NCBI RefSeq assembly: GCF_030684315.1 | Contig: NC_081388.1 | Coordinates: 23,357,015 to 23,421,014 of the forward strand | DNA from: Stegostoma tigrinum | Lineage: Eukaryota | Reading direction: 5' to 3' | Length of the DNA: 64,000 bases | Shown here: in pieces, positions 24,001 through 61,511 of the stretch | Layout of the letters: each line of letters opens with the position of its first letter | Numbering within the stretch: position 1 is the first letter of the stretch | The notes under the pieces: model-generated | Databases searched by the model: none | What the model saw: the letters and a program-made list of their open reading frames with translations, nothing else | What the model was told of the DNA's origin: nothing | Made by a program: the position numbers and the translations under genes

Positions 24001-27000
24001 GCTATAGTAATGGGTTTGTTTCAGTATGTGGTTGAAGAGTGTCAGGGCAGAGGAGATTACCAGAGGGTCATTTTTGAGGAAATGTCACTCAACCCAAAAC
24101 GTGAACTGTGTTTTCTCTCCACTGCTGAGCTTTTCCAGCAATTTCTGTTTTTGTTTCTGATTTCCAGCATCTGCAGAGCTTTCAGTCTCTGTGAGGTCCA
24201 CCTGGGTGACCTTGTTACAACCACTGTATCCATCCTCCTCTGAGGCCGGTTACTTCTTTTCTTGTAGCTCCTCCTGGACCACTTATAGCACTGAGTCAGG
24301 TTTCTCCAACTCTGCCTCTGATACAGATAAAGTGTAACGCATAGTAGCTCATCTCTTGCACCTGGAGCATCACAGAAGAAATTTATTGCTCTCTTCAGGC
24401 AGCAAGGACATTGAGGCAGTGACATCTACCACAGACTCCATGGTTGAACATACCTGATGGAGAGGGAGACCCCATGGGATCCCAAACAATCAGACAGGCA
24501 GTTGAGGAGCTGGGCACATTTTGTTCTTGGATAACAAAGTGTGGAGCTGGATGAACACAACAGGCCAAGCAACATCTTAGGAGCACAAAAGCTGACGTTT
24601 CGGGCCTAGAACCTTTCGTATTCCTAAGATGCTGCTTGGCCTGCTGTGTTCATCCAGCTCCACACTTTGTTACCTTGGATTCTCCAGCATCTGCAGTTCC
24701 TACTATCTCTGATCACATTTTGCTCCTGCACCATTTGAGAGTTTGCAGTTTTCATGTGGCCCACATGCGTGTTCAGGACCATCACACCTACCGAAACTTT
24801 ATACCTCATAGTACCTGACGTCATGTTGACCATGCTCGTTACCCATGCAGCACCATTCTGGGGTTCCTACGCCAAACCCTCTCCCCTGAAGTAAACAGTC
24901 TGTCTTGCTTAGTGGAGTCTTATGTTCGACCTTGGTATTCCTGATGCTGTTTCATCCTACCCCAAGGTCCAGGAAGATCAGATTTAACTTGGTGTGGAGA
25001 CTTCTCCCTGTTAACAACACTGCTGGATCTACCCTTGTATTTGCATGAGGCCTGGTCCTATAATCAACTTGGAACTGGGACAATTTGGTATCGCGTGAAG
25101 CTTTAGGCTGTTTCTTTAAGTTTGCCTTCAATGTTTGGACTGCTCTTTCTGCGAATCATTGGACAATGCAGTTTGCAGCTGTCCTTATATGATGAATACC
25201 ATTCAACTTTAGTAAATACCCAAATTCCCCAATGCTAAACGATTGCATGTTATCTGTGACCATCACTGCTGTTAATCCATGTTTTGTAAAAGATGCATGC
25301 GTTTTTTTTAATTGTCATCCCTGTGTTTGACAAATGAACTCTATGCACATCAAGCAACTTTGAGTGGGCATGCACAATGATTAAGAGCATTCAGCCAACG
25401 AAAGGACCTTCAAAGTTGAAGTGTAACTGATTCCAGGGTTTATCCGGCCATTCCCACAAATATGGGGGAACATCTGGTGGTAATTTTTGTTCTTGTTGGC
25501 ACTGCAGGCACTGGCCTACCAAAGCAGCTATGTCTGCATCTAATCCTCCCCACCAGACATAATGTCTCATCGACATCTTCATTTTGGAAACCCCTGGATG
25601 ACCCTGGTGGAGTTCAGCTGGTACCTGGTGCTGACTGTTGCTCAGGACAATCACTCTTACTCCCCAGAGTCTGGTATTGGTCAGCTGGAACTGAAAGTGT
25701 GCCTGGAACGTTTAAAATCAGAGCGGGCTCTTCCTGTAATGGCTCAATGCATCCGCATTTGCTACCTACTCTCCCAGACAATGTTGTAATTATACACATA
25801 TAATTCAGCCCAACACTGAATTCGGTTTAAAGCTATGGGCAGCACAGACTTCTCCTCTTTATGTAGACCTAGCAGAGGTTTGTGATCCGATATTATTACA
25901 AAATTTACATCCATAAATGTATTGCTGGAGCTTCTTGACTCCAAATATCATCACCAAACCTTAATGCTCTATTGGGGTGTACAGGGAGGCATCACATGTC
26001 AATACTAGATCTCACTTGCAAACATAATTTGTCAACACATAGAGGGTGATGGTTGTCTCTTCGCTTCTCTGAAGGCAATGGCTTGGCTATGTGACCATTT
26101 CCAAGGCTGACCCTTTTTTAAGAGTTGATGCTAAGGTACCAGGGTGGAGGCCAGGCTATGTATGAGCTTTCCATAATAGTTCACCAGCCCAAGGAAAGAC
26201 TGAAGCTCTGGTTCAGGTGTGGGAATCAGGGCACCTTTTGATCAGCCTCCCTTTATCTTTCAACGGGTTTAACCCAGTCTCGTCAACTCTGTAGCCCAAG
26301 TAGGTCACTTGGGATGCCTGGAACACACATTTTTCCCTTCTAAGGCATATGCCCACCTGGGAGAAATGTCTAAGGAATATGTCCAAGTTCTGTAAGTGCT
26401 CCTTATTGGTCTTCCCCATAATTAGCATGACATCTGGATAAATGGCAAACCTGGGTAAAGCTGGTAAAATGTTTTCCATCATCCACTGAGAAATGGCACA
26501 GGCTGATAACACCCAAAATGGTAGTCTCGTTTATTGGTACAAAGTCCTATGGGTGTGAGTTGTAGAATACGTCTAGGAATTGTCATTAACTGCAACTGCA
26601 TGTACACATGGTTCATGTCTGGCTTCGTGAAGCATAGCCAACCCCCCACTAGTTTTGTGAGGGCTTGGGTGTTTATCCAGCTGCGAGAAGCAGTTTACCA
26701 TTCATTTAAAATCCCTGCAAAGGTGAACCGACCTGTGGGGCTTCACAATCAGTGTGACCAGTGCTGCCCGTTCCACAAACTGTGCTGGTTTGATGATTCC
26801 TTCACTTTCCAGCCTTCTGATTTCTGCCTGTACTTTTGCAGGTAATACAAATGGCGCTGGGTGGGCCTTGCAGAATTGTGGAATTACCTCTTGGTCAACA
26901 TGCAAGGTGGCCTTGGCTCCTTTGATAATCCCTGGACCTTTCTGAGAAACTTCCAGCCATTTAGTTAGGACTTCACTCAGGCAGCCATTTTCATATCAAA

Positions 27001-30000
27001 AAATGTTGTGCCAATTAAGGTGAATCTTTCTCAACCAATTTTACCCCATCAGGCTTGTGCCCGAGCCTTTTACGACAATCAGTGGTAACTGAACCAGCTG
27101 CTCCTCATGTAAGACAGGAACTGAAGATGTACCCTTCATCTGTAAAGGTTCCCCAGCACAGGTTCTCTGTCTGGCCAATGTCTTGTGCAAACCTAACCGC
27201 TAGAGTCCACGCTGAATCTTGGTAAAGACTGATTCTGCAATCATTGACACAGCCTCGCCAGTATCGACCTCTGTTAGAACCAGGTGACCATTTAACCAAG
27301 CAGTTATTTTGATTGGTCCTGATTCGGATCTTGCTACGCAATTTAACTGTTCCAAGCCAGATGTAGGTGGACTTTCAGGGTATGTCTCCTGGATACCGGC
27401 CTAAAGGTTCTGTTACTCAATACAGGCCTAGTGGGAGTCTTCCTGTCTCGAGTCTGCATTCTGGTAGCACTTACAATGGGTTGGCCCAGATTCTTGAGAA
27501 AATTTTAACTGTTTGCTTGAGGCTTGGCTTTGTTTTAGGGTTTTGCCGAGGGCTGACCTAGATCCCCTCTGTTTACAATACGTCCTGAGTGAGGCAATGC
27601 AATTGCCTTCATTCAAATGTTCAGTTGGACTGACAAGGGTGCCCACTTCCTTCAGAATACTCTGCAACTCCGATGCTCCACTTGCCACATTTGCCAACGA
27701 AAAAGACTGTTGTAGTGCCTGTTTGAAGTCCAGTTGGACTTCAACTAGTAGGTGCGTCTGTATGGTCACATCATTAATCTCACATACCAAATGGTCTCTC
27801 AGCATCTCATTAAGGGCTAAGCCAAAGTCACATGCCTCTGCCAGTCACCTTAACCTCAACAAAAATCTTGATATGGATTCCCCTGGCTCTCAAATTACTG
27901 AGTAAAAGTGATAGTGTCTCAGAGCTAGAGGAGGCTTGGGATCAAAATATTCCCTAACTAAATCCATCAATTCTTGAATGTTTTAGTATCTGGTGCCTCA
28001 GGGAAGGTTAGGCTCCTAATAACCTAAAAAGCTGCAGGTCTACAAGCTGTCAGGAGAATTACTTGTTGCTTTTCATCTGCCCCCAATGTCATTTGCCTCG
28101 AAAAAATAACACATTCTTACCACATATTAGGCCCAGTCTTCGATAGCAGGATCAAATGAGTCAAGCTCCCCAAATAATCCCATGATGCCAGAAATACTTA
28201 CCCCAACTCAGAGATGACTGTTGCAAGTGAATTTCTTCAAGAGGGTGCTTTCTTCTGTTCACCACTGAAATAACTCTGCAGAAACTGGTATCCCATTGTG
28301 AAGTCACTCTTTATTTACATGTGGAGAGTCCTCTCAGAGTGAACAGAATACTCCTGTTTATATCTGTCAGCCAAGGCTCTCTGATTGGATGACATTAACA
28401 GCCGCAGTCAGGGAACTCATGTTCTACGATATCCACTTGGCTGACCTTGTTACAATCACTATAGTTACATTGACTACATGAATTGTTAGCAACAAATTAC
28501 ATGAGGAGGTATTAAGGCAGATGATTGAAAGCTCAAACAAAAGGGCATGTTCTGGAGAGGGCCTTAAAGGAGGAAATAGAGAGACATAGAGAGAAATGTT
28601 GAGGTTTAGGGAGTAAGTTGAGAGCCTAGCAACTTGGCAAGTGAATGCACAGTTTGCAATAGTGGACTTTAAATTCAAGCTGCACCAAATGCCAGAATCA
28701 GAGGTTTGTCGGGCTGGAGGGGGCTACAGAGACAGAGTGACACGCTAGTGAAGAATTTGAGTGTTTGTTTTAAAGCTGGCAATAATTACCCTTTGAGATA
28801 ATGAGCATCATATTAAAGTTCCCATTCTGAAGAAAATGACTAATTACAGAATTTTAGAAGTCAGCCAGGTTCTAGTCCAACAGGTTTATTTGAAATCACA
28901 AGCTTTTGTAGCATTGGCCCTGCATCAGGTGAAGTGAGATCACATCATAATAGAAGAATGGAGAGGCTTAATATGGTCACAAGGCAGGAAGAAGGTGAAA
29001 CCAGAGACAAATAAACTCATTCTAAGAAAAGAAATGTGGATGGATACTGGTTTCAATAGATGATTGGACTATACCACTTAGCTGAGTTTCAATGTGTGTT
29101 AAAACATCCCATTTGCCTTATTTTATTTCAACATTCTAGCATTGAAACCACAGACAGTAGATAGTTACTGAGCCATTATAGAATCTCTATCACTCCCATT
29201 TTTTAATTAGAACAGTTTTCACTTACTGTAAACAGTGACCACTTCCTTGACCGACCTTTGCTCTCTGTTACACCTTACGAAACAGGGGACAGAGACATCC
29301 CAGGCTGTGACTTTTGGGAAAAAGTCTGCTATCCATTTACTTCCAGATTGTCTATGAGGAGTTAGCCCTGATTTATACTCCAAGATAATTAATACGTCTG
29401 AACCCACACATGATGTACTGCAGTTTGCCTCCAATGAGTGTCCAAACTCCAGAACTTGGGGGTTTATGTCAACCCAGATGTCAATTCCTGCCATGTTTGC
29501 TGCCAAGAAAACAAATCACAGTCAATACATTGACACTGGCTTTATTTCATATTCAGAGTAACTTCCAGAGGTAAATCAAGAAACACAGTAAAACATATTG
29601 TCACATTTTATAGAAATGGGGTAATCAGGGCTTACCTTTACCAAAGAGTAGATAGGCAGCAACTTCCAAATTCCACACGTGTGTGATTCAATGCATGGAC
29701 CATTTAAGAAGGGCTACCCTTCACTGGAAGCTGCAGGAAGCCTGAGGGTAGGAAGTGGTCTTCAAATGAGCCAATTAAATGGGCTGCCCTCGCCTGTCAC
29801 TGACAATACGCCATGGCAACAGAAAGAGTTTCTCCTCCCACCTTGCCCACTATATTGCCAGCCTTATAGCCTCCCAGCCCACAGCGTGGAGTGGGAAGGG
29901 GGACTTACCCCTGTGTATTTTGTGTGGATTCTTCAGCATGACTACTTCAAAGGCTCCGATTTGCTTGCCTTAATCAAACGCGTCTGATCCCTCTAGTGAG

Positions 30001-33000
30001 CATGGTGCTGTTTTTGATCTTAAAAACCACAGCTCCCAGAGCAAACATTGATAGAAAGCCCCTGAGGAGGTGTCTGTCATGCACAACTATACGCTTCATT
30101 TGCCACCACGAACATAACACAGACCACTTTTGTTCCTCCTGTGTCCCTTAGCTGGTGCTAATACTGAAAAACAGCACATTGTTTCATTGTTATTGGAATT
30201 CTCCCTTTACAGGTATCAAATATTTTTAATCAAAAGGCTGTTACTTTTTTTGTTTTCTTCAAGGTTTCTCCATGCATTATTCATTTACAATGAAACAAAA
30301 GTGGAATTACAGCTGCAATAGGAGGGATGGTGGCATAGAGATAATATCACAGAAGCAGTGAATCCCAAACCCAGGCTTCACTCTCTGGACACGGTTCAGA
30401 TCCAAACAAAGCCACTGGTGAATTCTAGAATTCAGTGAATTAAAAGTGAACTTAAAAAGAACAAGGGCCTATTAGTTTTGTCTCAAATTTATAGAATTGT
30501 TACAGCAGAGAAAATGCTGCTTGACCAATCATGTCTACGTTGGCTTTACCAAGGCCGTCCCCACAGAGGAGGCTGAGAACAGATTTGATCGCAATGTAAA
30601 AAATTGTAAGGGGCCTGATTAAAAGTGGATGCGCAGGGTCCCATCCAACTTTGTAAAGAAATCAGTGCGTATGAGGCACAGATTTAAGGCCCACGTTCCT
30701 CCTCATCAGATATTTAAAATAGCTAGAAAATGTTTAAAATTATCACACAGAAGGATGCTACGTTTCCCATTGTGTCTGTACTGGGTGAGGCATCTTTCAA
30801 ATGAGTTGAGAGTCTCTGCCTATATTACCTGCCTTAGGCAGTGAGTTCCAGACACGTAACACCTTCATGTCAGCTCATTTCCCCTCTCCCATCTCCACCC
30901 TGTCACCTTAAATCTGTGCCTCATAGTCACTGATCTCTTTATGAAGTTACACAAGACTCTTCCTATCCACTTTAATCAGGCCCCTTATAGTTTTGCACAT
31001 CTCAATCAAATCTCCCCTCAGCTTCCTCTGTTCCGAGGAGAACAGCCCCAGCCTGTCAACCACACAGGCAATTTTTGCACTGTCTACAAATTCAAGCCTT
31101 ATTATTAAATATAAATGAGGAAAACAGGGACCCAGCACTGAGTCCTGTGAAATCCCACAGTGAAAGGCTTTCCAGCATACATTTCCTGTTGTTTCTTGCC
31201 ACTCAGCCAATTTCGCATTCAGTTTGTCATATTGCCACCAAGATCTGATTGGCTTTTGTTCTAACCGGTCTGCCAGATAGGATCTTGGCAAAAACCTTTC
31301 TGAAGTCCTCGTAGACCATGTCAGTTGCAATACTCCCAACAATCCTCCCTATTGCCTCCTCAATAAATTCAATCAAGTTTAACAGACTCAATATTATCTT
31401 AATAAATCCATGCTCACTATTCTTGATTACTCCATACATTACTAAATTGCATTTTATCTGTCTCTCAGATTCGATTCCAATAAATTTTCCCACTTTCAAG
31501 GTTAGACAAGTGGCCTGTAATTATGTGATCTACCCCCACCCCCCACTCCCTTTTTAAATAAAGGTATAATGTTAACTATTTCAATTCTCTGGCATCACAC
31601 CTGCATTCAGCACAGATTGGAAGTATTGATCGCAGCATCTGTTATTTCCTCCTGGCTTCTTTTAATAACCTGGGATGCATTTCTTTATCATTATCAAAGA
31701 TGCTACGTCTCTCCCTATGATTGTCATATTCAATATTTCACAATCTTCCTTCTGACAACAATGCCTGAATAATTTACCTTATTTGTGAAGAAAATTGCAG
31801 AATCTTCATTAAGGATTGTATCAACATTGTCTATTTCTACATATTGATGGCCTTTTTGATTATGGACTGTACGCTTTCCTTAGCTATCTTCTTACTCCTA
31901 ATAAATTGGATAAAATTGAGTTTTCTTTAATGTTACTTGCCAATATTATTTTAAGCTATCTCTGTTTTCTATCTCTTTTTTTGCTGTCGCCCCCTCCACT
32001 TTCTATACTTCTAGCTTTCTATAGTATTCAGTTATTTGTATCTGATACAAGCTTTCCTTTTCTGCTTTATCTTCCCCTGCAAACTGTTCAGTGGCCTTGT
32101 GGCTCTGTATTTGTCTGTCCCAGCCTTTCGTTTGTGGGAACATATTTGCTCTGAATCTTTTAAAGAATCTCTTTCAATGCCTTCTCAGTGTTCTAACACT
32201 GATTTACTTCAACTTGATGTTTCAAGTCAACTTTTGCTCAGTAAAATTAGCTTCACCCAAATTTAGAAGTTTAACGCGTGTTAAATCTTTGTCCTTCATC
32301 ATAATTATATTAAAACTAACTGAATTATAATCACCCTAACCAAATACTGCCCTACTGTTATTCCTTCCATCGATGCAGCTGCACTTCCCACGACAGAATT
32401 ATATCGTCTTGTTGGATTTGCTAAATACTGGCCAAAAAGGGTCTACTGAATGCACTTAATGAATTCATTTCCCTCCATTCTTCTCACATTAATGCTATTT
32501 CAGTTAATATTGTGGTAGGTAAAAGCCAAACTATTACTACTTTGTTGTTTTTGCACCTCTGAGAGATTTGCCAACATCTGTGCTCCTCCTTCAAGAAGTC
32601 TATTGTACACTCCCAAGAGTATAGCTGCCCCTTTTGTATTACTTAGCTCAGTCCATATGACTTCATTTGATGATACTTTCAATCTATCATCCCTCCTTAA
32701 AATATGTTTGTTTCTTCCACCAAAATTGCCACCCACTTTTCCTTTTAATCCCTCTCCTCTCCTCTACCATGTCTGAAAGCTCTGTAACCAGAAATTCTTC
32801 CTGATCCTGTTTAAGCCGTATACAATATCATACTGCCCTCAGCTGGTCTGTCTTATTTAATATACTCTCCACATTAAAATTTTCTAAACTGTGGTCCCTT
32901 TGTCATCCAGACTTATTTGCACTTCTGAATTCACCATAGTGTCCTTGCCCACAGCCAAAATAGCTTTGTTTCCTGAACAGCCCTACCAATAAAGTTACAT

Positions 33001-36000
33001 GTTCTTGTTGAGCTTATCACCATTTAATATCCATCTAGAATCATAGAGTTTTACAGCAAGGAAGGGGCTATTGGGCCCATTGTGTCCATGCTGATCATCA
33101 AGCAGCTGTGTATTCTTGTCCATTATCCGACAGTTAGTCTGTTGCCTTATATTCTAAGATGATTCAAGTGTTTATATAAAAAACCTTCTTAAATATCTTG
33201 GAGATTCATAGAGTCATAGATTCATACAGCATGGACACTTCTGTCCAACTCATCCATGCCAACCAGACATGCCAATCCTACCTGATCCCATTTGGCAACA
33301 TTTGGCCCATATCCCTCTAAACCTATGTACCAGATGCCTTGTAAATGTTGTAATTGTACCCACCTCCATCACTCCTTCTGGCAGCTCGTTCCATATATGC
33401 ACCACCCTTTGCGTGAACAAGTTACTCTTCACATTCTTTTTAAAAATTTTCCCTTCGACCTTAAACTCTCTAGTTTTGTACTTCCCAACCCTTCATGATT
33501 TTATATACCTGTGTAAGATCATCCCTCAGCCTTTGATGCTCCAGGGAAAATAACCTCAATCTATGCAGCCTCTCCATATTGCTCAACCCCTCTAACCTTG
33601 GCAACATGCTTCTAAGTTTTTTCTGAACCCTTTCAAGGTTAATAACATCTTTCCTATAACAGAGAGACCAGAGTTGTGCTCAATATTCTAAAAATGTGCA
33701 AACCAATGTCCTGTACAGCCACAACATGACATCCCAACTCCCATACTCGATGCACTGACCAATGAAGACAGCCTTTCCAAACACTCCTTCACTACCCTGT
33801 CCACCTGTGGCTCCAACTTTAAGGAACTATGCACTTCCAACCCTAGGTGTCTTTGTTCAGTAATACTCCTGAGGGCCTTCCCATTGATGAATTATCTCAG
33901 TAAAATGCAACACCTCACATTTATCTAAACTCCATCTGCCACTCCTCAGCCTATTGACCCATCTGATCAAGGTCCCATCATATTCTGAGGTAACCTTCTT
34001 CACTGCCCTCTACACCTCCAATTTTGGTGTTGTCTGTAAAATTACTAACCGTTTCTCCTTTGTTCACATCCAAATCATGAAATCATAAATCATGAAAAGC
34101 AGTGGCCCCAGCACTGATCCCTGTGGCACACCGCTGGTCACAGGCCTCCAGTCTGAAAACAATCCTCCACCACCAACCTCTCTTTTTATGTTTTCATTCA
34201 CAGGATGAGGGAGTCACTGGCCAGGCAGCATTTGTTACCCATCCCTAATTGCCCAGAGGGCAGTTAAGAGTCAACCGCATTGCTGTACGTCTGGAGTCAC
34301 ATGTAGGTCAGACCAGGTAAGGATGGCAATTTCCTGCCCTAAAGGACATTAGTGAACCAGATGTGTTTTCCTGACAATCAACAACAGAGTTATGGTCATC
34401 ATTAGATGCTTAATTCCAGATACTTAATTAATTCAAATTCCACCATTTGCTGTAGTGAGATTCAAACTCAGGTCCCCAGAACATTATCTGGGTCTCTGGA
34501 TGAACAGTCAAGCGATTACACCACAAGGCCATTGCCTCCCTATTCCCCTGTCTCCTACCGTCAAGACAATTTTGTATCTAAATGGCTAGCTCCCCCATGT
34601 GATCGAACCTCACTAACCAGTCTACCATGTGGAACCTTGTCAAATGCTTTGCAGAAGTCCACTGACATCTGAAGAAGGAGCAAGACTCCCAAAGTTTGTG
34701 AATTCAAGTAAACCAGTTGGACTATAACCTGGTGACATGTGATTTCTGACCTTATCCACCCCTGTCCAACACTGGCACCTCCTCATCATGGAGGCCGCGT
34801 AGACAATGTCTATTGCTCTGCCTTCATTGATCTTTTTTGTTACCTCTTTGAAAAATTCAATCAAGTTAGTGAAACAATGATTTCCCATGCATAAAGCCAC
34901 ACTAACCATCCCTAATCAGATTTTGCCTTTCCAAATGCATGTAAATCCTGCCCCTCAGAATCCCCTCCAACAATTTGCCCACCACTGTTGTAAGGCTCAC
35001 CAGTCTATTGAACATAGAACATAGAACATAGAACAGTACAGCACAGAACAGGCCCTTCAGCCCACAATGTTGTGCCGACCATTGATCCTCATGTATGCAC
35101 CCTCAAATTTCTGTGACCATATACATGTCCAGCAGTCTCTTAAATGACCCCAATGACCTTGCTTCCACAACTGCTGCTGGCAACGCATTCCATGCTCTCA
35201 CAACTCTCTGCATAAAGAACCTGCCTCTGACATCCCCTCTATACTTTCTACCAACCAGCTTGAAACTATGACCCCTCGTGATAGCCATTTCTGCCCTGGG
35301 AAATAGTCTCTGGCTATCGACTCTATCTATGCCTCTCATTATCTTGTATACCTCAATTAGGTCCCCTCTCCTCCTCCTTTTCTCCAATGAAAAGAGACCG
35401 AGCTCAGTCAACCTCTCTTCATAAGATAAGCCCTCCAGTCCAGGCAGCATCCTGGTAAACCTCCTCTGAACCCTCTCCAAAGCATCCACATCTTTCCTAT
35501 AATTGGGCGCCCAGAACTGGACGCAGTATTCCAAGTGCGGTCTAACCAAAGTTTTATAGAGCTGCAACAAGATCTCACGACTCTTAAACTCAATCCCCCT
35601 GTTTGGCAGATGTGCAGGTGAACCTCTGCTTAATGTGGAAAGTCATCTTGGGGCCTGGGATAGGGGTGAGGGAGGAGGTGTGGGGGCAAGTGTAGCATTT
35701 CCTGAGGTTGCAGGGGAAGGTGCCGGGTGTGGTGGGGTTGGAGGGCAGTGTGGAGCGAACAAGACAGTCACGGAGAGAGTGGTCTCTCCGGAAAGCAGAC
35801 AGGGGTGGGGATGGAAAAATGTCTTGGGTGGTGGGTCGGATTGTAGATGGCGGAAGTGTCGGAGGATGATGCATTGTATCCGGAGGTTGGTAAGGTGGTG
35901 TGTGAGAACGAGGGGGATCCTCTTTCAGCGGTTGTGGCGGGGGCGGGGTGTGAGGGATGTGTTGCTGGAAATACGGGAGACGCGGTCAAGGGCGTTCTCG

Positions 36001-39000
36001 ATCACTGTGGGGGGAAAGTTGCGGTCCTTGAAGAACTTGGACATCTGGGATGTGCGGGAGTGGAATGTCTTGTCGTGGGAGTAGATGCGGCGGAGGCGGA
36101 GGAATTGGGAATAGGGGATGGAATTTTTGCAGGAGGCTGGGTGGGAGGAGGTGTATTCTAGGTAGCTGTGGGAGTCGGCGGGCTTGAAATGGACATCAGT
36201 TACAAGCTGGTTGCCTGAGATGGAGACTGAGTGGTCCAGGAAGGTGAGGGATGTGCTGGAGATGGCCCAGGTGAACTGAAGGTTGGGGTGGAAGGTGTTG
36301 GTGAAGTGGATGACCTGTTCGAGCTCCTCTGGGGAGCAAGAGGCGGCGCCGATACAGTCATCAATGTAATGGAGGAAGAGGTGGGGTTTGGGGCCTGTGT
36401 AGGTGCAGAAGAGGGACTGTTCCACGTAACCTACAAAGAGGCAGGCATAGCTGGGGCCCATGCGGGTGCCCATGGCCACCCCCTTTGTCTGTAGGAAGTG
36501 GGAGGAGTCAAAAAAGAATTTGTTGAGGGTGAGGACGAGTTCGGCTAGGCGGATGAGGGTGTCGGTGGAGGGGGACTGATCGGGCCTGCGGGACAGGAAG
36601 AAGCGGAGGGCCTTGAGGCCATCTGCATGCGGAACGCAGGTGTATAGGGACTGGACGTCCATGGTGAAGATGAGGTGTTGGGGTCCAGGGAATTGGATGC
36701 CCTGGAGGAGGTGGAGGGCATGGGTGGTGTCACGGACGTAGGTAGGAGTTCCTGGACCAAATTGGAGAAAATGGAGTCCAGATAGGTGGAGATGAGTTCG
36801 GTGGGGCAGGAGCAGGCTGAGACGATGGGTCGACCAGGGCAGGCAGGTTTGTGGATTTTGGGAAGGAGATAGAAACGGGCCGTGCGGGGTTGGGGAACAA
36901 TGAGGTTGGAGGCTGTGGGTGGGAGGTGCCCTGAGGCGATGAGGTCATGAATGGTGTTGGAGATGATGGTTTGGTGCTCGGGTGTGGGGTCATGATCGAG
37001 GGGGCGGTAGGAGGTGGTGTCGGAGAGTTGGCGTCTGGCCTCGGCGATGTAGAGGTCAATGTGCCATATTACCACTGCGCCACCCTTGTCTGCGGGTTTG
37101 ATGGTGAGGTTGGGGTTGGAGTGGAGGGCTGCCGAGTGCAGTTCTTACTATCTCTTTGTCACTTTGTGTATTGTGCTGTCTGCAGCCTGCCTGTCTGGGT
37201 CTGCAGCTTGTTTATTTCAGTATCTTTGCACAGACACTCTGGCCAATGCTTGGCTTGACCTCCCAGCATGCTTAGTGCATTATCCAATTATGCCATTTTG
37301 AGTGGCCTGCTTGGGTACAGAGTGTGTGGGCACTAGGAATATGCTTAAGAGGGAAATCAGGAGGGGCAGAAAGGGGACACGAGATAGCTTTGGCAAAAGA
37401 GTTCATTTACAGAAGAGGATGAGGTGCTGGAGGTTTTAAAGTATATAAAGGTAGAAAACTTCCTTGGACCTGATCAAGTATCTCAGAACTTTGTGGCAAG
37501 CTAGGGAAAGATTACCGGCCCCCTGGCTGAGATATTTGTATCATTGATGGTTATGGATGGGGTGCTGTAAGGCTTGAGAGTGGCTAATGTGGTGCCAGTA
37601 TTTAAGAAAAGGCTATAAGGAAAAGTTAGGGAACGGCTTTGTGAGGGGTAGGTCATGCCTTACAAACCTTATCGAGTTTTTTGAGGATGTGACTAGAAAA
37701 GTTGATGAGGATCGAGCTGTGGATGTGGTGTATATGGACTTCAGTAAGGCATTTGATAAGGTTCCCCATGGTAGGCTCATTCAGAAGGTCAGAAGGAATG
37801 GGATACAGGGGAACTTAGCTGCTTGGATACAGAATTGGCTGGCCAACAGAAGACAGCGAGTGGTAGTAGAAGGAAAATATTCTGCCTGGAAGTCAGTGGT
37901 GAGTGGAGTTCCACAGGGCTCTGTCCTTGGGCCTCTACTGTTTGTAATTTTAATTAATGACTTGGACGAGGGAATTGAAGGATGGGTCAGCAAGTTTGCA
38001 GACGACACAAAGGTCGGAGGTGTCGTTGACAGTGTAGAGGGCTGTTGTAGGCTGCAGCGGGACATTGACAGGATGCAGAGATGGGCTGAGAGGTGGCAGA
38101 TGGAGTTCAACCTGGATAAATGCGAGGTGATGCATTTTGGAAGGTCGAATTTGAAAGCTGAGTACAGGATTAAGGATAGGATTCTTGGCAGCGTGGAGGA
38201 ACAGAGGGATCTTGGTGTGCAGATACATAGATCCCTTAAAATGGCCACCCAAGTGGACAGGGTTGTGAAGAAAGCATATGGTGTTTTGGCTTTCATTAAC
38301 AGGGGGATTGAGTTTAAGAGTCGTGAGATCTTGTTGCAGCTCTATAAAACTTTGGTTAGACCGCACTTGGAATACTGCGTCCAGTTCTGGGCGCCCAATT
38401 ATAGGAAAGATGTGGATGCTTTGGAGAGGGTTCAGAGGAGGTTTACCAGGATGCTGCCTGGACTGGAGGGCTTATCTTATGAAGAGAGGTTGACTGAGCT
38501 CGGTCTCTTTTCATTGGAGAAAAGGAGGAGGAGAGGGGACCTAATTGAGGTATACAAGATAATGAGAGGCATAGATAGAGTTGATAGCCAGAGACTATTT
38601 CCCAGGGCAGAAATGGCTATCACGAGGGGTCATAGTTTCAAGCTGGTTGGTGGAAAGTATAGAGGGGATGTCAGAGGCAGGTTCTTTACGCAGAGAGTTG
38701 TGAGAGCATGGAATGCGTTGCCAGCAGCAGTTGTGGAAGCAAGGTCATTGGGGTCATTTAAGAGACTGCTGGACATGTATATGGTCACAGAAATTTGAGG
38801 GTGCATACATGAGGATCAATGGTCAGCACAACATTGTGGGCTGAAGGGCCTGTTCTGTGCTGTACTGTTCTATGTTCTATTTGTTTGGGGGAGGGGATGT
38901 GAGGGCATAAGTGTGGGAAATGCAAGAGACTAAGTGACTAAACCTATTTACCAGGACAATAGGAAACATCGAGCTGTCTCCGGAACCCAGGGACATCTTC

Positions 39001-41342
39001 ACACTCTTATCTGGGAAGTCTACCTGACATATGTGCCCCTGTCACTTTCAGAAATGGAGGATCAAAGGCCACCCTACCGTCCGCATGGCACTGCCTGATT
39101 GGGTCTGATCAATCAGGGTAATCGATTCCTGATCGATCCATTGATGGGAATGGAAGATCCTCCCAAAGGGGTGCAGAAGCTTCCAAGGATAAGAATCCCC
39201 ACAAAAGCACCCTCAGGAGCGGTAACTCGGGACAAGCCACCATTAGCAGAGGTGCCCCTGGGAGCACCAGGAGAGGAAGGCCAGACAAGCATCAGCGTGT
39301 GGATCAAGGCTAAGGTCTCCTGTGGCGATGTTTGATCATTCCAAGTGAAAGTACAATGTACTGATTTAGGGTGACAGTGTTAATTGTCAGATTTATAGTA
39401 TGAATTGTTAGTTTGTGGCATAATCACTAATATAATATTAGCTGTTATAAGCAATGAAGATAATTTCATACTACCATTTAGAGTTGACTAAGCCCTTTGG
39501 AAGCTAAGCACACTTTCCTCTTTGTAACTTAGACCCCACCAACAAAACGCACTGATCATACCTTCAGTATTCATGCCTAGGTTTAGATTCCCTACAGTGT
39601 GGAAACAGGCCCTTCGGCCCAACAATTCACACCGCCCCTTGGAGCATCACACCCAGTCCCATCCCCCTATAACCCACACACCCCTGAACACTGCAGGCAA
39701 CTTAGCATGGCCGATCCACCTAGCCTGCACATCTTTGGACTGTGGGAGGAAACCCACAGAGACACGGGGAGAATGTGCAAACTCCACACAGACAGTCGCC
39801 TGAGGCTGGAATCGAACCCGGGTCCCTAGTGCTGTGAGGCTGCAGTGCTGACCACTGAGCCACCGTGCTGCCCATTATTCTACCACAAGAAACAGCAAAG
39901 CTTGCAGCACCCCTTCCTGTGGAACTCCATCTGCAACCACCAGCCTCTCTCCCGGTCACCAGCCAGTTTCGGATCCATTTGCCAAATTGCCCTGGATTCC
40001 GTGGTCTCTGGTATTCCTAGGCAGAATGTGAACATTCTGCCGCTCGGAACCTCTACACAAACCTGACAGTTACTGTCAGTCTCAATCTACCCGATACACT
40101 CATTAACCACTGTAACGGCAACTGTCTCCAAAGAAAAAGAATCCTATTGTTGCAAAGCTTGAGATTTCATGCTGTCTTTATCCCATGTGCACTTCCATTT
40201 AATTTCATTTTTCATTTAGTGTTAATGGAAAATGAAAAATCCCCTTCTGTTGAAGCTCTGATGTAACTGCTGGTGATGAAGATGTAACTACATACTGTGC
40301 TGGGAGCTGTGAGTGTGGATGGAAAGTCCCCGCACAATTCCGGGGACAGGGATAGGTTATCTCAATGAGACGAGAACATTCTTGTGCCGAGATTCAGTCC
40401 AGCTCAGTAGGGAATTCCCGTCACTTTGCCGTTATTTGAGCCTCTCAAACGGTCACCATCTTTATTACCGATGATCCCTACTGAAATGCTAAATACAGAA
40501 GGAACAGTTGTGTGCGCGAAACAGGGATTCTTTACATCGCGGGCAACAACTTTCTCACATNNNNNNNNNNNNNNNNNNNNNNNNNNNNNNNNNNNNNNNN
40601 NNNNNNNNNNNNNNNNNNNNNNNNNNNNNNNNNNNNNNNNNNNNNNNNNNNNNNNNNNNNNNNNNNNNNNNNNNNNNNNNNNNNNNNNNNNNNNNNNNNN
40701 NNNNNNNNNNNNNNNNNNNNNNNNNNNNNNNNNNNNNNNNNNNNNNNNNNNNNNNNNNNNNNNNNNNNNNNNNNNNNNNNNNNNNNNNNNNNNNNNNNNN
40801 NNNNNNNNNNNNNNNNNNNNNNNNNNNNNNNNNNNNNNNNNNNNNNNNNNNNNNNNNNNNNNNNNNNNNNNNNNNNNNNNNNNNNNNNNNNNNNNNNNNN
40901 NNNNNNNNNNNNNNNNNNNNNNNNGAGTGTATGTGTGTGCCTGTGAGTGTATGTGTCCGTGTGTGTGCCTNNNNNNNNNNNNNNNNNNNNNNNNNNNNNN
41001 NNNNNNNNNNNNNNNNNNNNNNNNNNNNNNNNNNNNNNNNNNNNNNNNNNNNNNNNNNNNNNNNNNNNNNNNNNNNNNNNNNNNNNNNNNNNNNNNNNNN
41101 NNNNNNNNNNNNNNNNNNNNNNNNNNNNNNNNNNNNNNNNNNNNNNNNNNNNNNNNNNNNNNNNNNNNNNNNNNNNNNNNNNNNNNNNNNNNNNNNNNNN
41201 NNNNNNNNNNNNNNNNNNNNNNNNGTACGTGTCCGTGTGTGTGTCTGAGAGTGTATGTGTCTGTGTGTGTGTCTGTGAGTGTATGTGTGTGTGTGTCTGT
41301 GCGTGTCTGTGAGTGTATGTGTGTGTCTGTGAGTGTATGTGT

Positions 41343-41379
<37 letters not shown>

Positions 41380-42006
41380 GTGGCAGTTTGAGCAGAGATC
41401 CCAGGTCCTGGGACAGGACCCACCAACAGCCCAACACTGTCAGGGTCTAGCAGTTTCGGACGTCAGAAACCGATCACAAGAAGCGGCTCTAACTCTAGGT
41501 GAATGAACTCAAAAGCTCCAATTCCTCAGTGGAGCGCAGGGCACTCAGCCCCAGAGACACCGCTTCCTCTGCTCGGGCAATTGCGAAGAGGGTTCAGAAT
41601 TTGCGCCGGGTGGGCTGGGGGGCTTATAGAACCCAACTTCCAGCAAACATATCAAACATCGCAGCCAGCTTTATTTATCACAAGGCAGACTGAATCACAG
41701 CAACACGTAATCCGTGAAGTTAGCCCTCTGTCTTTCTGCTTCCCTCAGCACAAACTGAAAACGTGCCCGATAATTGTCGTTCTTCACGGCTAGGAATAAC
41801 AGGAAAGTCAATCCTCGAACGCAAAATCAATTGCACACAAGAAATGCCCGCATATAAACAGAACTGTACACGTCGCGAACCGCAGCACAAATACACTCAG
41901 TAAACACCATGCACTGATTCTAAATATGTTTTTACCTACTTGTCACATAAGAAGTGATAGTCAAGAACTGAATAAGTCCATGAGGTGACATGATCTGGAA
42001 GCCCAT
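8824..42006 (-). CDS. Gene A: ICAM-family (ICAM/VCAM-like) type I membrane protein, 6 Ig domains, 667 aa; join(42006-41940,29499-29227,20674-20360,18284-17991,17301-17014,10913-10668,10312-10028,9059-8824)
   Basis: Eight exons joined by GT-AG phase-1 introns give an uninterrupted 2004-bp frame. D1 has CSTSC and CFVRC as in ICAM D1; D5 has [17 protein letters not shown] resembling ICAM-1 D5; a TM segment is followed by RKRGEYNV. Orthology to a specific ICAM is not determinable here. Confidence 0.88.
9497..9703 (-). pseudogene. Cryptic or relic terminal exon inside gene A intron 7
   Basis: Acceptor cttctcatag| resembles the exon 8 acceptor; a tandem TGAGGGG repeat shifts the frame; the downstream frame contains SAN...GENADECL, also found in frame after the gene B stop. 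Confidence 0.4.
10028..10312 (-). CDS. Gene A exon 7, Ig domain 6
   Basis: Acceptor tctcttttccag|, weak donor G|gtcaga, 285 bp; [15 protein letters not shown]...[12 protein letters not shown]. Confidence 0.92.
10668..10913 (-). CDS. Gene A exon 6, Ig domain 5
   Basis: Acceptor aattttacag|, donor T|gtgagt, 246 bp; [10 protein letters not shown]...[12 protein letters not shown]. Confidence 0.92.
11260..12515 (+). mobile_element. CR1 LINE 3' fragment
   Basis: [47 protein letters not shown]. Confidence 0.9.
12530..16300 (+). mobile_element. Degenerate RTE-clade LINE with nested insertions
   Basis: APE start TWNVRTLMD...ALCET, RT motif FDLTKAF, C-terminal [10 protein letters not shown]; many frameshifts. 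Confidence 0.65.
13879..16619 (+). repeat. Local direct duplication of about 240 bp (13879-14117 and 16381-16619)
   Basis: Both copies begin TGGTTACACTTCAGGAAGGAGG and match with few substitutions. Confidence 0.9.
14118..15451 (+). mobile_element. 5'-truncated Penelope-like element with inverted terminal segment and 15-bp TSD
   Basis: GIY-YIG ORF 14570-15157 (VVYCIQC..C...YIGET...RFAEH); about 14200-14467 is an inverted copy of about 15160-15440; AGATACAGATTTCAG at 14103-14117 and 15452-15466. Confidence 0.88.
17014..17301 (-). CDS. Gene A exon 5, Ig domain 4
   Basis: Acceptor cttgtttttag|, donor T|gtaagt, 288 bp; EGNLVNITC...[12 protein letters not shown]. Confidence 0.92.
17991..18284 (-). 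CDS. Gene A exon 4, Ig domain 3
   Basis: Acceptor tgtattacag|, donor G|gtaagg, 294 bp; [10 protein letters not shown]...VRWFQDG...VVC. Confidence 0.92.
20119..20146 (+). ncRNA. Minimal hammerhead ribozyme motif in a Penelope terminal-repeat fragment
   Basis: CTGATGA-A-GGGT-ctag-GCCC-GAAA-CG-TC: both core boxes, a helix II, and palindromic ACGT at helix III. Helix I is weak. Confidence 0.6.
20360..20674 (-). CDS. Gene A exon 3, Ig domain 2
   Basis: Acceptor ctcctttaacag|, donor T|gtaagt, 315 bp; CIGPRVYP...LTWLRG...DDGQEYTC. Confidence 0.92.
20810..28454 (-). mobile_element. Degenerate Gypsy/Ty3 LTR retrotransposon filling most of gene A intron 2
   Basis: Fragmented gag ([11 protein letters not shown]), RT ([16 protein letters not shown]), RNase H (SDHKPLLGL) and integrase ([12 protein letters not shown]-x2-C). 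5' LTR 28454-28266 followed by TGG PBS-like sequence; 3' LTR split into 24219-24190 and about 20933-20810. Confidence 0.8.
20935..24185 (-). mobile_element. Degenerate Penelope-like element nested in the Gypsy 3' LTR
   Basis: Collinear similarity to the Penelope RT/GIY-YIG copies at 35602-37130 and 14468-15450; terminal-repeat copies near 20950 and 23710. Confidence 0.8.
29227..29499 (-). CDS. Gene A exon 2, Ig domain 1 (integrin-binding type)
   Basis: Acceptor ttttcttggcag|, donor A|gtaagt, 273 bp; NCSTSC...IILEYK...CFVRCNREQ. Confidence 0.92.
30840..31700 (-). mobile_element. Highly decayed CR1 fragment
   Basis: [25 protein letters not shown] remnants. Confidence 0.55.
33210..35009 (-). 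mobile_element. Old CR1 LINE fragment with nested SINE
   Basis: [13 protein letters not shown] and [10 protein letters not shown] remnants; tail near 33210. Confidence 0.75.
35010..35601 (-). mobile_element. Young CR1 LINE 3' end
   Basis: Intact ORF2 C-terminus (35103-35570) and (TGTTCTA)n tail; nearly identical to 38300-38880. Confidence 0.92.
35602..37130 (-). mobile_element. Penelope-like element RT fragment
   Basis: ORFs with [29 protein letters not shown] and YIDD motifs; interrupted by a stop and a frameshift. Confidence 0.88.
37633..38880 (+). mobile_element. Young 5'-truncated CR1 LINE (RT domain open)
   Basis: 403-aa ORF with [28 protein letters not shown]; (TGTTCTA)n tail. Confidence 0.95.
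39580..39871 (-). mobile_element. tRNA-derived SINE (HE1-like); related copies at about 7949-8196 and 44540-44828
   Basis: Head GGCAGCACGGTGGCTCAGTGG...GGGTTCGATTCC (A and B boxes), body GTGTGGAGTTTGCACATTCTCCCCGTG, CR1-like tail. Confidence 0.8.
40228..40419. promoter_or_regulatory. Candidate NF-kB/IRF enhancer in gene A intron 1
   Basis: GGAAAGTCCC 40321-40330 (reverse complement GGGACTTTCC), GGGAATTCCC 40410-40419, GAAAAATCCCC 40234-40244, GAAAATGAAA 40228-40237. Confidence 0.55.
40561..41224. other. Assembly gaps (40561-40923 and 40971-41224)
   Basis: Runs of N. Confidence 1.
40924..41375. repeat. (GT)n-rich compound microsatellite
   Basis: GTGT/GTCT/GAGTGTAT runs flanking the N gaps. 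Confidence 0.95.
41940..42006 (-). CDS. Gene A exon 1, leader peptide [22 protein letters not shown]
   Basis: ATG in gagATGG context, 67 bp, phase-1 donor A|gtaggt in frame with exon 2; GAS motif 86 bp upstream; same length as, and alignable to, the 587-653 exon. Confidence 0.72.
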
Positions 42007-51130: not shown

Positions 51131-52252
51131 AAGACCTCATTTGAAAATGCATTCTTAAAACAGCTACATCACAACATTCTTGCTGATAACCTACAGGGTG
51201 ATTAGAAATCACAGGTGGCAATACTTGTTCCTTGCACTTGACTACAAGCGCTGGGCTGTGTTGTTCACGACTGCTCAGAAATAGCAAGACCTTGAACAGA
51301 ATTCTAACTGCGTATACATCCGTGAATCACCCTGTGTTTACAGAAGGCAGAGAGCAAGGCACTGTACTGGATCAAGTTGTAAATGTAAAACGAATTGATT
51401 TATTGCATGTCAGATATAGAAGAGCAAACAATTTAAGTTTTTCACTGAGGAAGGTTATTTTTAACTGTTCTCTGTACAGTGAAACTAAATAAGGCACAAC
51501 TCTCGCTCCCCAGACAAACATTTATTTTCAGTTTGGCCATTTCTAAGGTAACCATAGAATCTTCAATGAAGGCCTCTATGACCGTGTCCAGAAAAAAAAC
51601 CAGTATAAATAATAAGCACGTTTCATTAGTATTTGAAGAAATGGTAACATGCCTTTTGAAAGTAAAATTTTGCACGGTTACTTCATCCAACACTTTCAAC
51701 TGATTTTCTAAATTAAAATACAGTATTTTAACACAATTAGAGACCTTTCAACAAAAACCCAAGGGTTTATAACAATGACATGTTTCACTATTTACAAGGA
51801 GATAACACGGTGTGGAGCTGGATGAACACAGCAGGCCGAGCAGCATCATAGGAGCAGGAAAGCTGACGTTTCTGGCCTAAAAGTCCTAGTTTATCAGTCA
51901 TAAACGTAGAATGATTCTGTCACATCAAGTAGCTCTTGCCTACTCAATAATGTGGTGACCACAGTATGGATGGATTGTTTTATGAACAAAGATTAAACAG
52001 GCTGGGACTCTGTTCATTTAAGTTTGGAAGAATGAGAGGTAATCTCATTGAAACATATAGGATTCGTAAAGAACTTGACAGCTAAAATGCCAAGAGGGTG
52101 TTTCCCCTCATGGGAGAGTCTAGGGCTGGAGGGCACATCCTCCAAATGAAGGGGTACCCATGTCAGACTGAGACATGGAGGAATTTCTTCTCTCAGATGA
52201 TTATTAGTCTGTGGAACTCATTGCCACAGAGAGCTGACGGGCAGAGACCTCG

Positions 52253-53153
52253 TGGATGAGGTTGTTGACTTGCTCACCAAGCTGGCTGGTTTTTGTTCAG
52301 ATGTTTTGTCACCAGACATCATCAGTGGAGCCTCCGATGAAGTGATGTTATTCTACTCTGCTTGGAATTTATACTGCCCGGTCTGTTATGGTGAGTCCTG
52401 TCATTTCTGGTTTTGAACTGTTTGTGTTTGTGTATGGGGTCCAATTCTATATGTTTGTTGATTTAAGTACAGGTAGAGAACCATGCCTCTAGCAATTTCC
52501 ATGTGCGTCTATGTTTGGCTTAGGTTACAATGGTTACTTTGTCCAGTTAAACTGATGGCATTCATTGTCTGAGTGTATCGATATTAAGGAGTTCATCATG
52601 CTGTTGTGCTGCTAGATGACGTTCATGTATTCTGATGGCTAGTTTCCTTCCTGTCTGTCCCATGTAAATGTTTGTGGCAGTCATTGCATGGCATTTTGTA
52701 AACCACTTTGGTTTTGCTTAATATCGGTACACTCAGACAATGAATGCCATCAGTTTAACTGGACAAAGTAACCATTGTAACCTAAGCCAAACATAGATGC
52801 ACATGGAAATTGCTAGAGGCATGGTTCTCTACCTGTACTTAAATCAACAAACATATAGAATTGGACCCCATACACAAACACAAACAGTTCAAAACCAGAA
52901 ATGACAGTACTCACTATAACAGACTGGACAGTATAAATTCCAAGCAGAGTAGAATAGAACATAGAACAATACAGCGCAGAACAGGCCCTTCGGCCCTCGA
53001 TGTTGCGTCGACCTGTGAACTGATCTAAGCCCCTCCCCCTACACTATCCCATCGCTTCATTGGACGCTCCACTGTTGATGTCACCAAGCGTGGTGACAAA
53101 ATGTCTGAACAAAAACCAGCCAGCTCGGCAAGCAAGTCAACAATTTCATCCAC
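52253..53153. mobile_element. Fold-back of a second Penelope-family 3' end (long inverted repeat), interrupted by a short CR1 tail
   Basis: Arms about 52349-52589 and 52717-52956 are reverse complements; outer arms 52253-52348 and 53053-53153 carry decayed CTGATGA...GAAA boxes; the spacer encodes a GIY-YIG-like remnant. Confidence 0.75.
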
Positions 53154-53666
53154 AACCCAAGTTACAGATCTTTGCCAAAACTTTAAAGTCCTGGTGTTTA
53201 TTTAGGGTTGAGGTAGACAGATTCTTGAGAAGTGAGGGAAATCAAGAGTTTTGGGGAAAACACAGGAAAATGGTTTTGAGGAATGTCAGATCAGACATGA
53301 TCCTATTGAATGGCAGAGCAGGCCCAAGGGGCTGAATGGCCTATTTCATGTGGTCCTGTAACATGCTGTACTATAAATGCATGCTAATAAATCAATATGT
53401 ACCCCAGGAATTAACAGTATTTCTTTCAATTAATAGGAATACAAAAATAAGTTTGTAGGAAATGACTTTCAAAATAAAGGATTCATAAAATCTTTCCAAA
53501 TATCTAGAATGTTTTTAAATGTGAAAATTTTACAATTAGATTAAAGCATACTTCACCAAACACAAGCAATAACCTTAGTAAGGAAAATGCAGTTTTAGTT
53601 TAGTGATTTCTACTTGAGCCATCGCCGGTGCTGTTGATATCTCAATTTGTTGATCTTTGTTTCCAT

Positions 53667-53839
53667 TCAATTATCCCTGATGGGATTCATTGACCTATCT
53701 CCCACAGGTTGATTTCTATCGCAGACATTATAGCTGCCACTTCTATTTGCAGTGCTGAACTTATTGATAAGTGTTATAATCAATCCGATGGCTATGCCAA
53801 TTGTCACGCAGATTATTGGAGAGACTCTGTATCTTGTAC
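53667..53839 (-). CDS. Second, divergent ICAM-type TM/cytoplasmic exon: GTRYRVSPIICVTIGIAIGLIITLINKFSTANRSGSYNVCDRNQPVGDRSMNPIRDN*
   Basis: Branch-point-like cactaat and acceptor atcttcacag|, phase 1; hydrophobic segment plus KF...GSYNV aligns with IIVVTVGIA...KF...GEYNV of the other TM exons. Not in the ORF track. Confidence 0.75.
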
Positions 53840-54519
53840 CTGTGAAGATATTAGTGAAAACACAAATTATTGCTTTGTTTCAAAGCAACATGTTTATAAT
53901 GAAGAAATCCATTGCTTAATCACATCATTCCCACATTTACCAGATAGACTGAGTTGGTTCAAGGAGGAAACTCAACCCTACCTTTGCACAGGCGATTCTC
54001 AAAGAATCAGTATGGGACGAGCAGGAACATCCTACAACTAATGATATCAGAAAATCAAAGCCATTGTCGAAAGCTGCTGTGATAATTCCCATTCCCTTTG
54101 CAGTCCTGCCTTTGAGCCTGAATAAACCTGCCCCTGACATTAGCCTTCTCGGCAAGCCTGTGTTGAATTTCTGACCCCAATTATGTTTGCAACACTCAGA
54201 CCACCCACTTCCACTGCAATAATATTGCATGTCTCTGGCCTTGCCTCAACCCATTGACTTCTGAAACCCCCATGCCCGCACTTGTTATCTTGAAACTCGC
54301 CTTAACCTTCAAAACCCACTGCTCCAACTGGACTCTGCCAATTTTATAAATTTGCACCCTCTGTGAAATTAATTTCATCTAACTCTGATCTCCATAACCT
54401 AACACACACCCATTCTATTTACCCACAATGCCTGTGCTTGCTGACCTGTCAGAAAGCAATATTTGACACAGACACGTATAATCCATTGACCCCTACAGTC
54501 AGCTGGACTGTAAGAATTA

Positions 54520-59780: not shown

Positions 59781-60059
59781 CAGCTTCTGTAGCACGTCTT
59801 GGGATGTCTATTACATTAAAGGTTCCAGAAAAATGCATGTTCTTGTTGTTGACAGAAGGATTCTCAAAATATGATGACTTTCTTTCATCGTTTAAGTAGG
59901 TCTCAGAATTTTGCTTCCACCACAATTAAAGATTTTCTTCATTTATAACTTTTCAGACCTAAACAAACATTCATCAGCATTTTCCCCGAGACACTGATTG
60001 CGTTGGGTGTTTGCAGAACATATTTCATACCAGTTTGTAATTGTTGCTGTGTTACCGAG

Positions 60060-60259
60060 CTAGGGATGACATTCCACCAGAGGGACATCTTCCTGATGAT
60101 TATTCCCATTGGGGATCTGTGCATTGTTGTTGGGTTTTGCATTCTGTACATTATATTCTCCTCTTTTACGGGCATTGAATTTCTGGTACAAGGCCGCCAC
60201 TACCGCAGTCGTCAATACTGCTGCTATTCCTACGGTCACTACTATTATCCATTTTAAGC
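60060..60259 (-). CDS. Gene B TM/cytoplasmic exon 1 (tail ends ...IPNGNNHQEDVPLVECHP*)
   Basis: Same acceptor as gene A exon 8; 1 nt difference over the first 155 bp, then diverges; TAG at 60062-60060. Confidence 0.82.
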
Positions 60260-61511
60260 CTATGAGAACATAGAAAGAAAAGATACACAGCCCATCAACA
60301 GTCTAGAGAAATATATTAATTGCAACATGTCTGAACATTTCCAAAATCTGTGGATTGTAAACAAAGGATATTTTTCAATGAAATGTCCAGTGTGTTTTAT
60401 TCAGCTCTTTCCTGCCTGTTTTCCATGTTGTGTTCTGCGCCTTCTTTCATTCCTCCCATACTACATGCCACTCCTTGGCAGCGTGCCCTCAACTCCCTGT
60501 CTATTCCTGGTTAAATCCTGCAGGAATAACTAAATTCAATGTGATGTTCCAAACAAATTGATAACAGCATTTCTTTTCGCTGGTTTGAATTTCCGGAATT
60601 GATAATTCCTATCTATCTCTTACATTGCTAATAGCATGATTAAATGTCGTCTCCTTCTTTCAGAATCCAACCCTAAACATTCATCAGCACTATCCCTGAG
60701 GCACTGATTGAGCTGCTGCGTTTGCAGAATGTCCTCCCTGTATTTTCTCGCTGTATTTATGCTGTTCACCCCTCACCCCTCACTATGAGAAGTGAAGCCC
60801 GGCGATGTGTGCTTTACTCATTGATCTGTCAATACTTTGCTCCATGGAGTGGCAGTGTGTGGAGTCACAGCCCCCCAACCCCCCTTGAAGTTATTACCCA
60901 GGCATGTGGGACAAACACAGCGCAGGAGGAAGGTACTTCAACACACGAAAAGGAACACATGCAGGAGACTGTCTCTCTGAGCCACTTGTACCCAATGTAC
61001 CAGTTACAGAGCAGTATTATTAGAGACAGGGAGCAGTTTATCCACATGTCCCATTTCCAGAAAGGGTGCGGGAGAACAGGAGCCCAAAGTAATAAGAACA
61101 ATAGTAATATAAAATTCTGACCTTTGACCCTGATGTCCACATCCTTCTCATCACTTCCATATTGATTGGTAGCTCTACATATATAAATTCCTTGATGTTC
61201 TGAGGTTATGTACGGAATACGAAGAAATCGAGGACCAATCTCAATATTGTTGCCATTACTGGGATTTACCCACTCTAATACAGGTGAGGGTCTTCCATCG
61301 GACATACAGCTTAATGTAATTTCATCAGCTTTAGTGACTTCTACTGGAAAGCCTGACACTGTTTTGTTATTTACTGATATGGTCATGAATGTGTCTCGTG
61401 GTTTATCTGGAAAAGAGAAGAAAAAGATGAAAATAGGCAGGCATACCCACAGGATCACTGATACAGCTCCCCAACACTGCTTCAGTTAGCAGGATATCCA
61501 AACCTGGCCAC
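60105..61511 (+). repeat. Near-identical direct duplicate block, copy 2 (partner 8905-10417)
   Basis: Direct comparison as above. Confidence 0.95.
61122..61406 (-). CDS. Gene B (upstream tandem ICAM-like paralog): last Ig exon
   Basis: 285 bp, same splice sites as gene A exon 7, 3 nt differences by hand count (2 amino-acid changes). Earlier exons are not in the window. Confidence 0.85.

Follow-up and report, generated by a model that had tools for sequence, protein, structure and literature searches.

Does the zebra shark ICAM-like gene studied here have a second transmembrane ending downstream of its first one, and could this ending be used by splicing? The window analyzed is a stretch of 64,000 nucleotides from Stegostoma tigrinum (NC_081388.1, positions 23,357,015 to 23,421,014 of the forward strand). 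The gene, called gene B, lies on the minus strand. Two exons that could encode a membrane span and a cytoplasmic tail, TM1 and TM2, follow its last Ig exon:

61122..61406, minus strand: last Ig (I-set) exon of gene B, whose donor is common to both endings
60060..60259, minus strand: TM1, the proximal last exon of gene B, with a 22-residue core and a 41-residue tail
53840..53860, minus strand: acceptor of TM2, with CAG, a pyrimidine fraction of 0.72 and a branch-like CACTAAT unusually close to the AG
53667..53839, minus strand: TM2, the predicted distal alternative last exon, with a 17-residue hydrophobic core, a 32-residue tail containing RSGSYNV, and a TGA stop
51399..53666, minus strand: likely 3′ UTR of TM2, AT-rich and broken by repeats, with AATAAA at 53202, 51526 and 51404; the transcript end is predicted rather than mapped

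TM2 is a real exon, with its acceptor, phase, frame and hydrophobic core intact. It is 173 nt long and starts 6,221 nt past the TM1 stop, in phase 1, with 56 open codons followed by TGA. The GT donor of the Ig exon (61406-61122) joins TM2 in frame, and TM1 (60259-60060) fits the same donor. The first-pass annotation, made from the letters of the window, had given the coordinates, strand, AG acceptor, phase 1, translation and hydrophobic core of 53667..53839, and all of these were confirmed. It had also called the branch point and acceptor good. The acceptor is intact, but the A of the branch-like CACTAAT precedes the exon by only ∼12 nt, and the tract has a pyrimidine fraction of 0.72 compared with 0.89 for TM1. 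By itself the TM2 acceptor is unremarkable: 3 of 436 other nearby AG sites match its pyrimidine fraction with a normally placed branch match. A stricter picture comes from a TM test, in which an acceptor-like site has to lead into a phase-1 frame that stays open for 35 aa or more and reaches a Kyte-Doolittle mean of at least 2.0 over 19 residues. On the minus strand of the window, 3 of 296 acceptor-like sites pass, namely 60259 (TM1), 53839 (TM2) and 9059 (gene A, described below).

The absence of any Ig exon between TM2 and 60060, also part of the earlier reading, held up, as tblastn with six zebra shark ICAM proteins finds none between 60059 and 53840. Pfam gave 0 families on TM2, its PDB matches were short and weak, and no DNA similarity was found between the TM2 flanks and the Ig-TM introns or the gene A UTR. 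Three unnamed matches from a search of 1.84 billion proteins were set aside as unrelated, judged on their last 105 residues alone. The DNA-like run X9, which may be the assembly's own sample, spans 53317-54100 with 0 differences. Within the likely 3′ UTR of TM2 there is a 240-bp inverted repeat of 97.5% identity (52349-52588 and 52717-52956).

TM2 was found to be 100% identical to residues 510-566 of XP_059495962.1, the S. tigrinum ICAM5-like isoform X2, the sole match among 2 candidates. The exon had been described as hidden; it already ends this RefSeq model. Isoform X1 (XP_059495961.1) and isoform X2 are identical over 510 aa, after which X1 ends with TM1 and X2 with TM2. TM1 is 100% identical to the end of X1, and the last Ig exon is also 100% identical to the RefSeq isoforms. 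X1 and X2 are automatic predicted models whose read support is not visible. Alternative RefSeq models are usually based on aligned reads. The D1 domain of gene B lies outside the window, and the upstream exons of gene B are known from the RefSeq proteins only. Precomputed Pfam domains of the ectodomain (on P0001) are ICAM_N (PF03921) and ICAM D2 (PF21146). The best solved-structure match of the ectodomain is ICAM-5 (E 8e-21), and ICAM-5, -2 and -1 are among the top structure matches. An integrin-binding glutamate in D1 is a feature of the ICAM family; here a Glu in D1 is two columns off that of ICAM-5, where the alignment has gaps.

The proposal that TM2 is an alternative last exon agrees with this RefSeq pair, but the 61122|53839 (Ig-TM2) junction is absent among the contig joints listed (15 of 867). 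Twelve runs are listed for 53350-53845, with 0 recorded as RNA, and four of them were compared (X1, X3, X4 and X9). Runs X1, X3 and X4 are from a related species (organism A, ∼92% alike) and are RNA by guess. Contigs cover TM2 and its 3′ region in all three. Contigs of X3 and X4 pass from the Ig exon straight to TM1, without the intron 60260-61121, and could stem from a paralogue. In X1, by hand count, the TM2 contig would end at 53841 and overlap by 30 nt with an intron contig that begins at 53812. This geometry is that expected of a branch at the TM2 acceptor, and we take it as a weak hint. The TM2 contig of X4 would end at 53843, and that of X3 continues unspliced through the acceptor into the intron. 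Since the Ig-TM1 intron is partly covered in X3 and X4, the contigs between TM1 and TM2 may represent pre-mRNA or DNA. Contig depths did not enter into any ranking of the exons or any case for a read-through UTR, nor was use made of one bin of the Ig-TM1 intron that lacks cover in X1. The divergence in organism A is 50 in ∼620 nt for exon plus UTR (coding and UTR pooled), which is near the intron's 195 in ∼2,200 nt.

ICAM-like proteins were found in many sharks and rays. From 131 proteins, 52 tails were picked by hand, with most duplicates and many ray proteins left out; the tail trees hold 41 of the 52, after 11 short or RRLAAK-type rows were dropped. The TM2 tail scores 73, 71 and 57 with tails of the horn shark Heterodontus francisci, 54 with gene A, 53 with TM1 and 49 with Chiloscyllium plagiosum X2. 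TM2 had been claimed to be homologous to TM1. The TM1 match alone is weak (E 0.055-0.19 within the window, 41-43% identity), whereas the horn shark tails, compared with the window, match TM2 at E 3e-5 to 5e-5 (50-54% identity over 41-42 aa) and are its convincing homologues. The trees place TM2 with the horn shark tails with support of 92/92, 98/93 and 97/94, and the bamboo shark (C. plagiosum) X2 exon groups apart from it (97/92). TM2 is a long branch, with 0.72-1.7 changes per column, and by the AU test TM2 may also be joined either to TM1 and gene A (p 0.25, not rejected) or to the bamboo shark X2 exon (p 0.2, not rejected). A clean two-class split of the tails (97/96) was discarded as partly circular; once the columns that follow Y-x-V are removed, the group breaks up into three. 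A third, short tail type carries RRLAAK ahead of the membrane span and lacks an ERM-like motif; it ends ICAM-like genes from sevengill to zebra shark and is absent from the window (P0037, P0092, P0030, P0003, P0004, P0071, P0075).

Among 157 proteins, five pairs have a common N-terminal prefix of at least 200 residues and then divergent hydrophobic ends. In four of the five, all predicted models, the endings are two distinct TM exons (S. tigrinum, C. plagiosum, Hemiscyllium ocellatum and Cetorhinus maximus); the fifth (Mustelus) merely has an extra exon ahead of the same tail. These pairs are leads, as near-identical paralogues can yield chimeric models; in the three other sharks the exons are candidates rather than established orthologues of TM2.

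The origin of the pair TM1/TM2 is suggested by comparison with a neighbouring gene:

8824..42006, minus strand: gene A, an ICAM-like paralogue with one TM exon (9059-8824), the likely sequence-exchange partner of 60102-61517
59808..60020, minus strand: diverged copy of the Ig-TM intron just after TM1, with a putative recombination junction near 60020

Gene B is 96% identical to gene A over 60102-60530 and 60668-61517, intron included. The first part of TM1 is nearly identical to the gene A TM exon, and its last 14 codons are of another paralogue type, unlike gene A and resembling the tails of zebra shark gene C and C. plagiosum X1. The intron remnant begins ∼40 nt past the TM1 stop. It is 86% identical over 57 nt to 9594-9650, with a local score of 97 compared with a shuffle maximum of 44, and it is diverged far more than the 96% tract. 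No match was found between the gene A 3′ UTR and the DNA after TM1 (37 compared with 45 for shuffles). A contig of run X9 (59591-60134) crosses the putative junction with 0 differences. Because an intron copy directly follows the TM1 stop, recombination between tandem paralogues is likely behind the TM1/TM2 pair. The event may have been a deletion from one gene's stop to the next gene's last intron, or the insertion of a TM1 cassette into a TM2-type gene. TM2 had alternatively been suggested to be the original last exon, bypassed after duplication. This fits the intron remnant after the TM1 stop, but the D1 tree does not discriminate insertion of TM1 from deletion between genes, and D1 and tail types mix freely across the family. 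The idea that Ig and TM1 are an orphan fragment of gene A was dropped, since in RefSeq they belong to a complete gene that has a D1 of its own, and since the end of TM1 is of the other-paralogue type.

Three zebra shark paralogues (P0019, P0008 and P0009) are 93-100% identical in D2-D5 and 43-59% in D1, and their tails differ. Such a pattern would be expected of gene conversion that spares the ligand-binding and signalling ends. Tentatively, shark ICAM clusters might be a modular kit, in which the D2-D5 stalk is homogenised while D1 and the TM-tail cassettes are shuffled; captured tail exons, gained separately in several lineages, would let one ectodomain switch intracellular coupling by splicing. 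We hold this general scheme to be possible rather than probable.

Some other features of the cluster were observed. An inverted ICAM-like 5′ fragment on the plus strand (587-652 and 3526-3840) faces the 3′ end of gene A. Its signal-peptide exon matches residues 1-22 of XP_059495907.1 at 100%, and its D2 exon is 95.8% identical to that of gene A; no D1 exon was found between these two exons and no later exons on the plus strand. An additional intact Ig exon of gene A lies at ∼10913-10668 on the minus strand; it is skipped by RefSeq isoform X2 (XP_059495782.1) and included in bamboo shark relatives. The first intron of gene A contains 618 N bases in a microsatellite-rich stretch (∼40500-41250).

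TM2 is probably best explained as an intact second TM-and-tail exon of a zebra shark ICAM-like gene. It is the predicted splice partner of the last Ig exon in place of TM1, giving a five-Ig ectodomain with either tail, and the pair likely comes from recombination between tandem paralogues. The near, strong acceptor at 60259 and the more distant, weaker one at 53839 would compete for the 61122 donor, and one five-Ig ectodomain would thereby carry either of two anchors and tails. The first AATAAA after TM1 is ∼1.8 kb off, with none within 1.7 kb of its stop. TM1 appears to have lost its 3′ UTR when the junction formed, so that its mRNA would be terminated by signals carried on repeats (58282-56877) or would extend as far as those at 51526/51404 behind TM2. 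As far as sequence goes, TM2 looks like an ordinary alternative last exon of the nectin-2 type in a recombining shark ICAM cluster, and we think it more probably functional than inert.

Several observations stand against this explanation. The long branch, the shortened span and the atypical branch position of TM2 fit relaxed constraint. In organism A, exon plus UTR have diverged about as far as the intron, and the Ig-TM1 joint is listed (X3 and X4) while the Ig-TM2 joint is not among the joints listed. Apart from the branch position, these points, together with the intron remnant right after TM1, would also be explained if TM2 were a last exon in decay, left over from a paralogue that has lost its ectodomain exons by deletion, and spliced only as low-level noise with no selected role. 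Other odd endings in shark models are in line with such a relic: H. ocellatum X2 has a 9-residue uncharged run, and Narcine X2-X5 have no evident TM segment. However, TM2 has kept its frame, acceptor, hydrophobicity (a mean of 2.50 compared with 2.58 for TM1) and RSGSYxV core, even though the intron remnant that marks the event is far more diverged than the A/B tract. We consider a relic unlikely.

TM2 could instead be the original, main ending of gene B, with TM1 a cassette copied from a paralogue, a minor form whose apparent expression would be largely gene A reads. The AT-rich 3′ region with AATAAA lies behind TM2 and not close behind TM1. The 96% identity of 60102-61517 to gene A prevents reads across the Ig-TM1 junction from being assigned to one gene or the other. 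The horn shark genes with TM2-like tails also have a D1 closer to the broad type of gene B (60.7%) than to gene A (41.6%). On the other hand, TM1 has the stronger acceptor, its end resembles gene C and C. plagiosum X1 tails and so is not a simple recent copy of gene A, and D1 and tail types mix freely across the family. TM2 as the main ending is a rather poor prospect, and it concerns which form is major, overlapping with the alternative last exon that we prefer.

The two endings differ in their predicted membrane spans. The uncharged run is 17 residues in TM2 and 22 in TM1, with a median of 22 in the 52 tails, and the TM2 span has two arginines on its outer side. The product of isoform X2 would be a type I membrane ICAM. 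Short membrane spans favour ER/Golgi residence. That this product, with its short span and two basic residues inside, stays behind in the secretory pathway or is shed to act as a decoy, and so is not a surface ICAM, is improbable: the mean hydrophobicity of TM2 is normal, and 10 of the 52 tails have runs shorter than that of TM2 by the same count, some from Pro or Glu inside the span.

The tails also differ. Fewer basic residues in TM2 had been taken to mean different cytoskeletal coupling, and the count was right (2 K/R in the 12 residues after the span, compared with 4 in TM1), but weaker ERM coupling is unsupported. The ERM FERM-binding motif is RxxTYxVxxA (Motif-1alpha; ICAM-2), as given in PMC4015342 and PMC3155308. 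In RSGSYNVCDR of TM2, R, Y and V are exact, S stands for T and there is no A; in TM1, Y, V and A are exact, with K for R and E for T. With R, S, Y and V kept in TM2 and K, E, Y, V and A in TM1, the sequences do not imply that TM2 binds ERM proteins more weakly. PMC4015342 names R, T and Y as key residues, so that the direction of any ERM difference is not fixed by sequence. The motif core (R/K)xxxYx(V/L/I) is found in 36 of the 52 tails, TM2 among them. The TM2 tail would likely still bind ERM FERM domains via R-x-x-S-Y-x-V, and it lacks the AKPNNN-containing stretch of TM1. The isoforms may differ in trafficking or distal-tail partners, not in ERM binding on or off. The tail of C. plagiosum X2 (P0016) is without the tyrosine motif altogether and is a better candidate than TM2 for an ERM-uncoupled isoform.

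Should both forms be produced, an ICAM of a cartilaginous fish adjusts its signalling tail through the choice of last exon, which is not described for ICAM-1 in the accessible part of PMC10215618, and the locus preserves a legible trace of the way in which tandem genes give rise to such a choice. Because RefSeq already contains TM2 and nectin-2 already illustrates the principle, the advance is a modest one, of interest chiefly to research on the evolution of ICAMs and leukocyte adhesion. No paper on shark ICAM tail isoforms was found in the open-access literature, subscription papers and supplements being outside the search.

The known system nearest to hand is this very gene, as RefSeq X1/X2 (XP_059495961.1 and XP_059495962.1) show no difference from it. 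Compared with mammalian ICAM-1, -2 and -5, the zebra shark protein has the same ICAM_N and ICAM D2 domains, without implying one-to-one orthology, and the juxtamembrane motif in its tails resembles RxxTYxVxxA of ICAM-2. The ICAM-1 isoforms described in the sections consulted of PMC10215618 arise by exon skipping or truncation, or by TM loss, with no TM-exon swap among them. The H. francisci ICAM-like tails (XP_067877403-067877412) are closest to TM2, with VTIGI and RSGSY in common; unlike TM2, they are the sole ending among the isoforms listed for those genes, and their spans are 22-23 residues long. Nectin-2 alpha and delta (CD112) have the same extracellular portion with different TM and cytoplasmic regions by alternative splicing, according to PMC2194180. 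The zebra shark gene, as predicted from models, likewise has one ectodomain with two TM-tail endings. The nectin family has V/C/C Ig domains, in contrast to the ICAM_N-led five Ig domains of the zebra shark protein. Nectin tails end in a common E/A-X-Y-V consensus (PMC2185068), whereas the TM2 tail ends in RDN.
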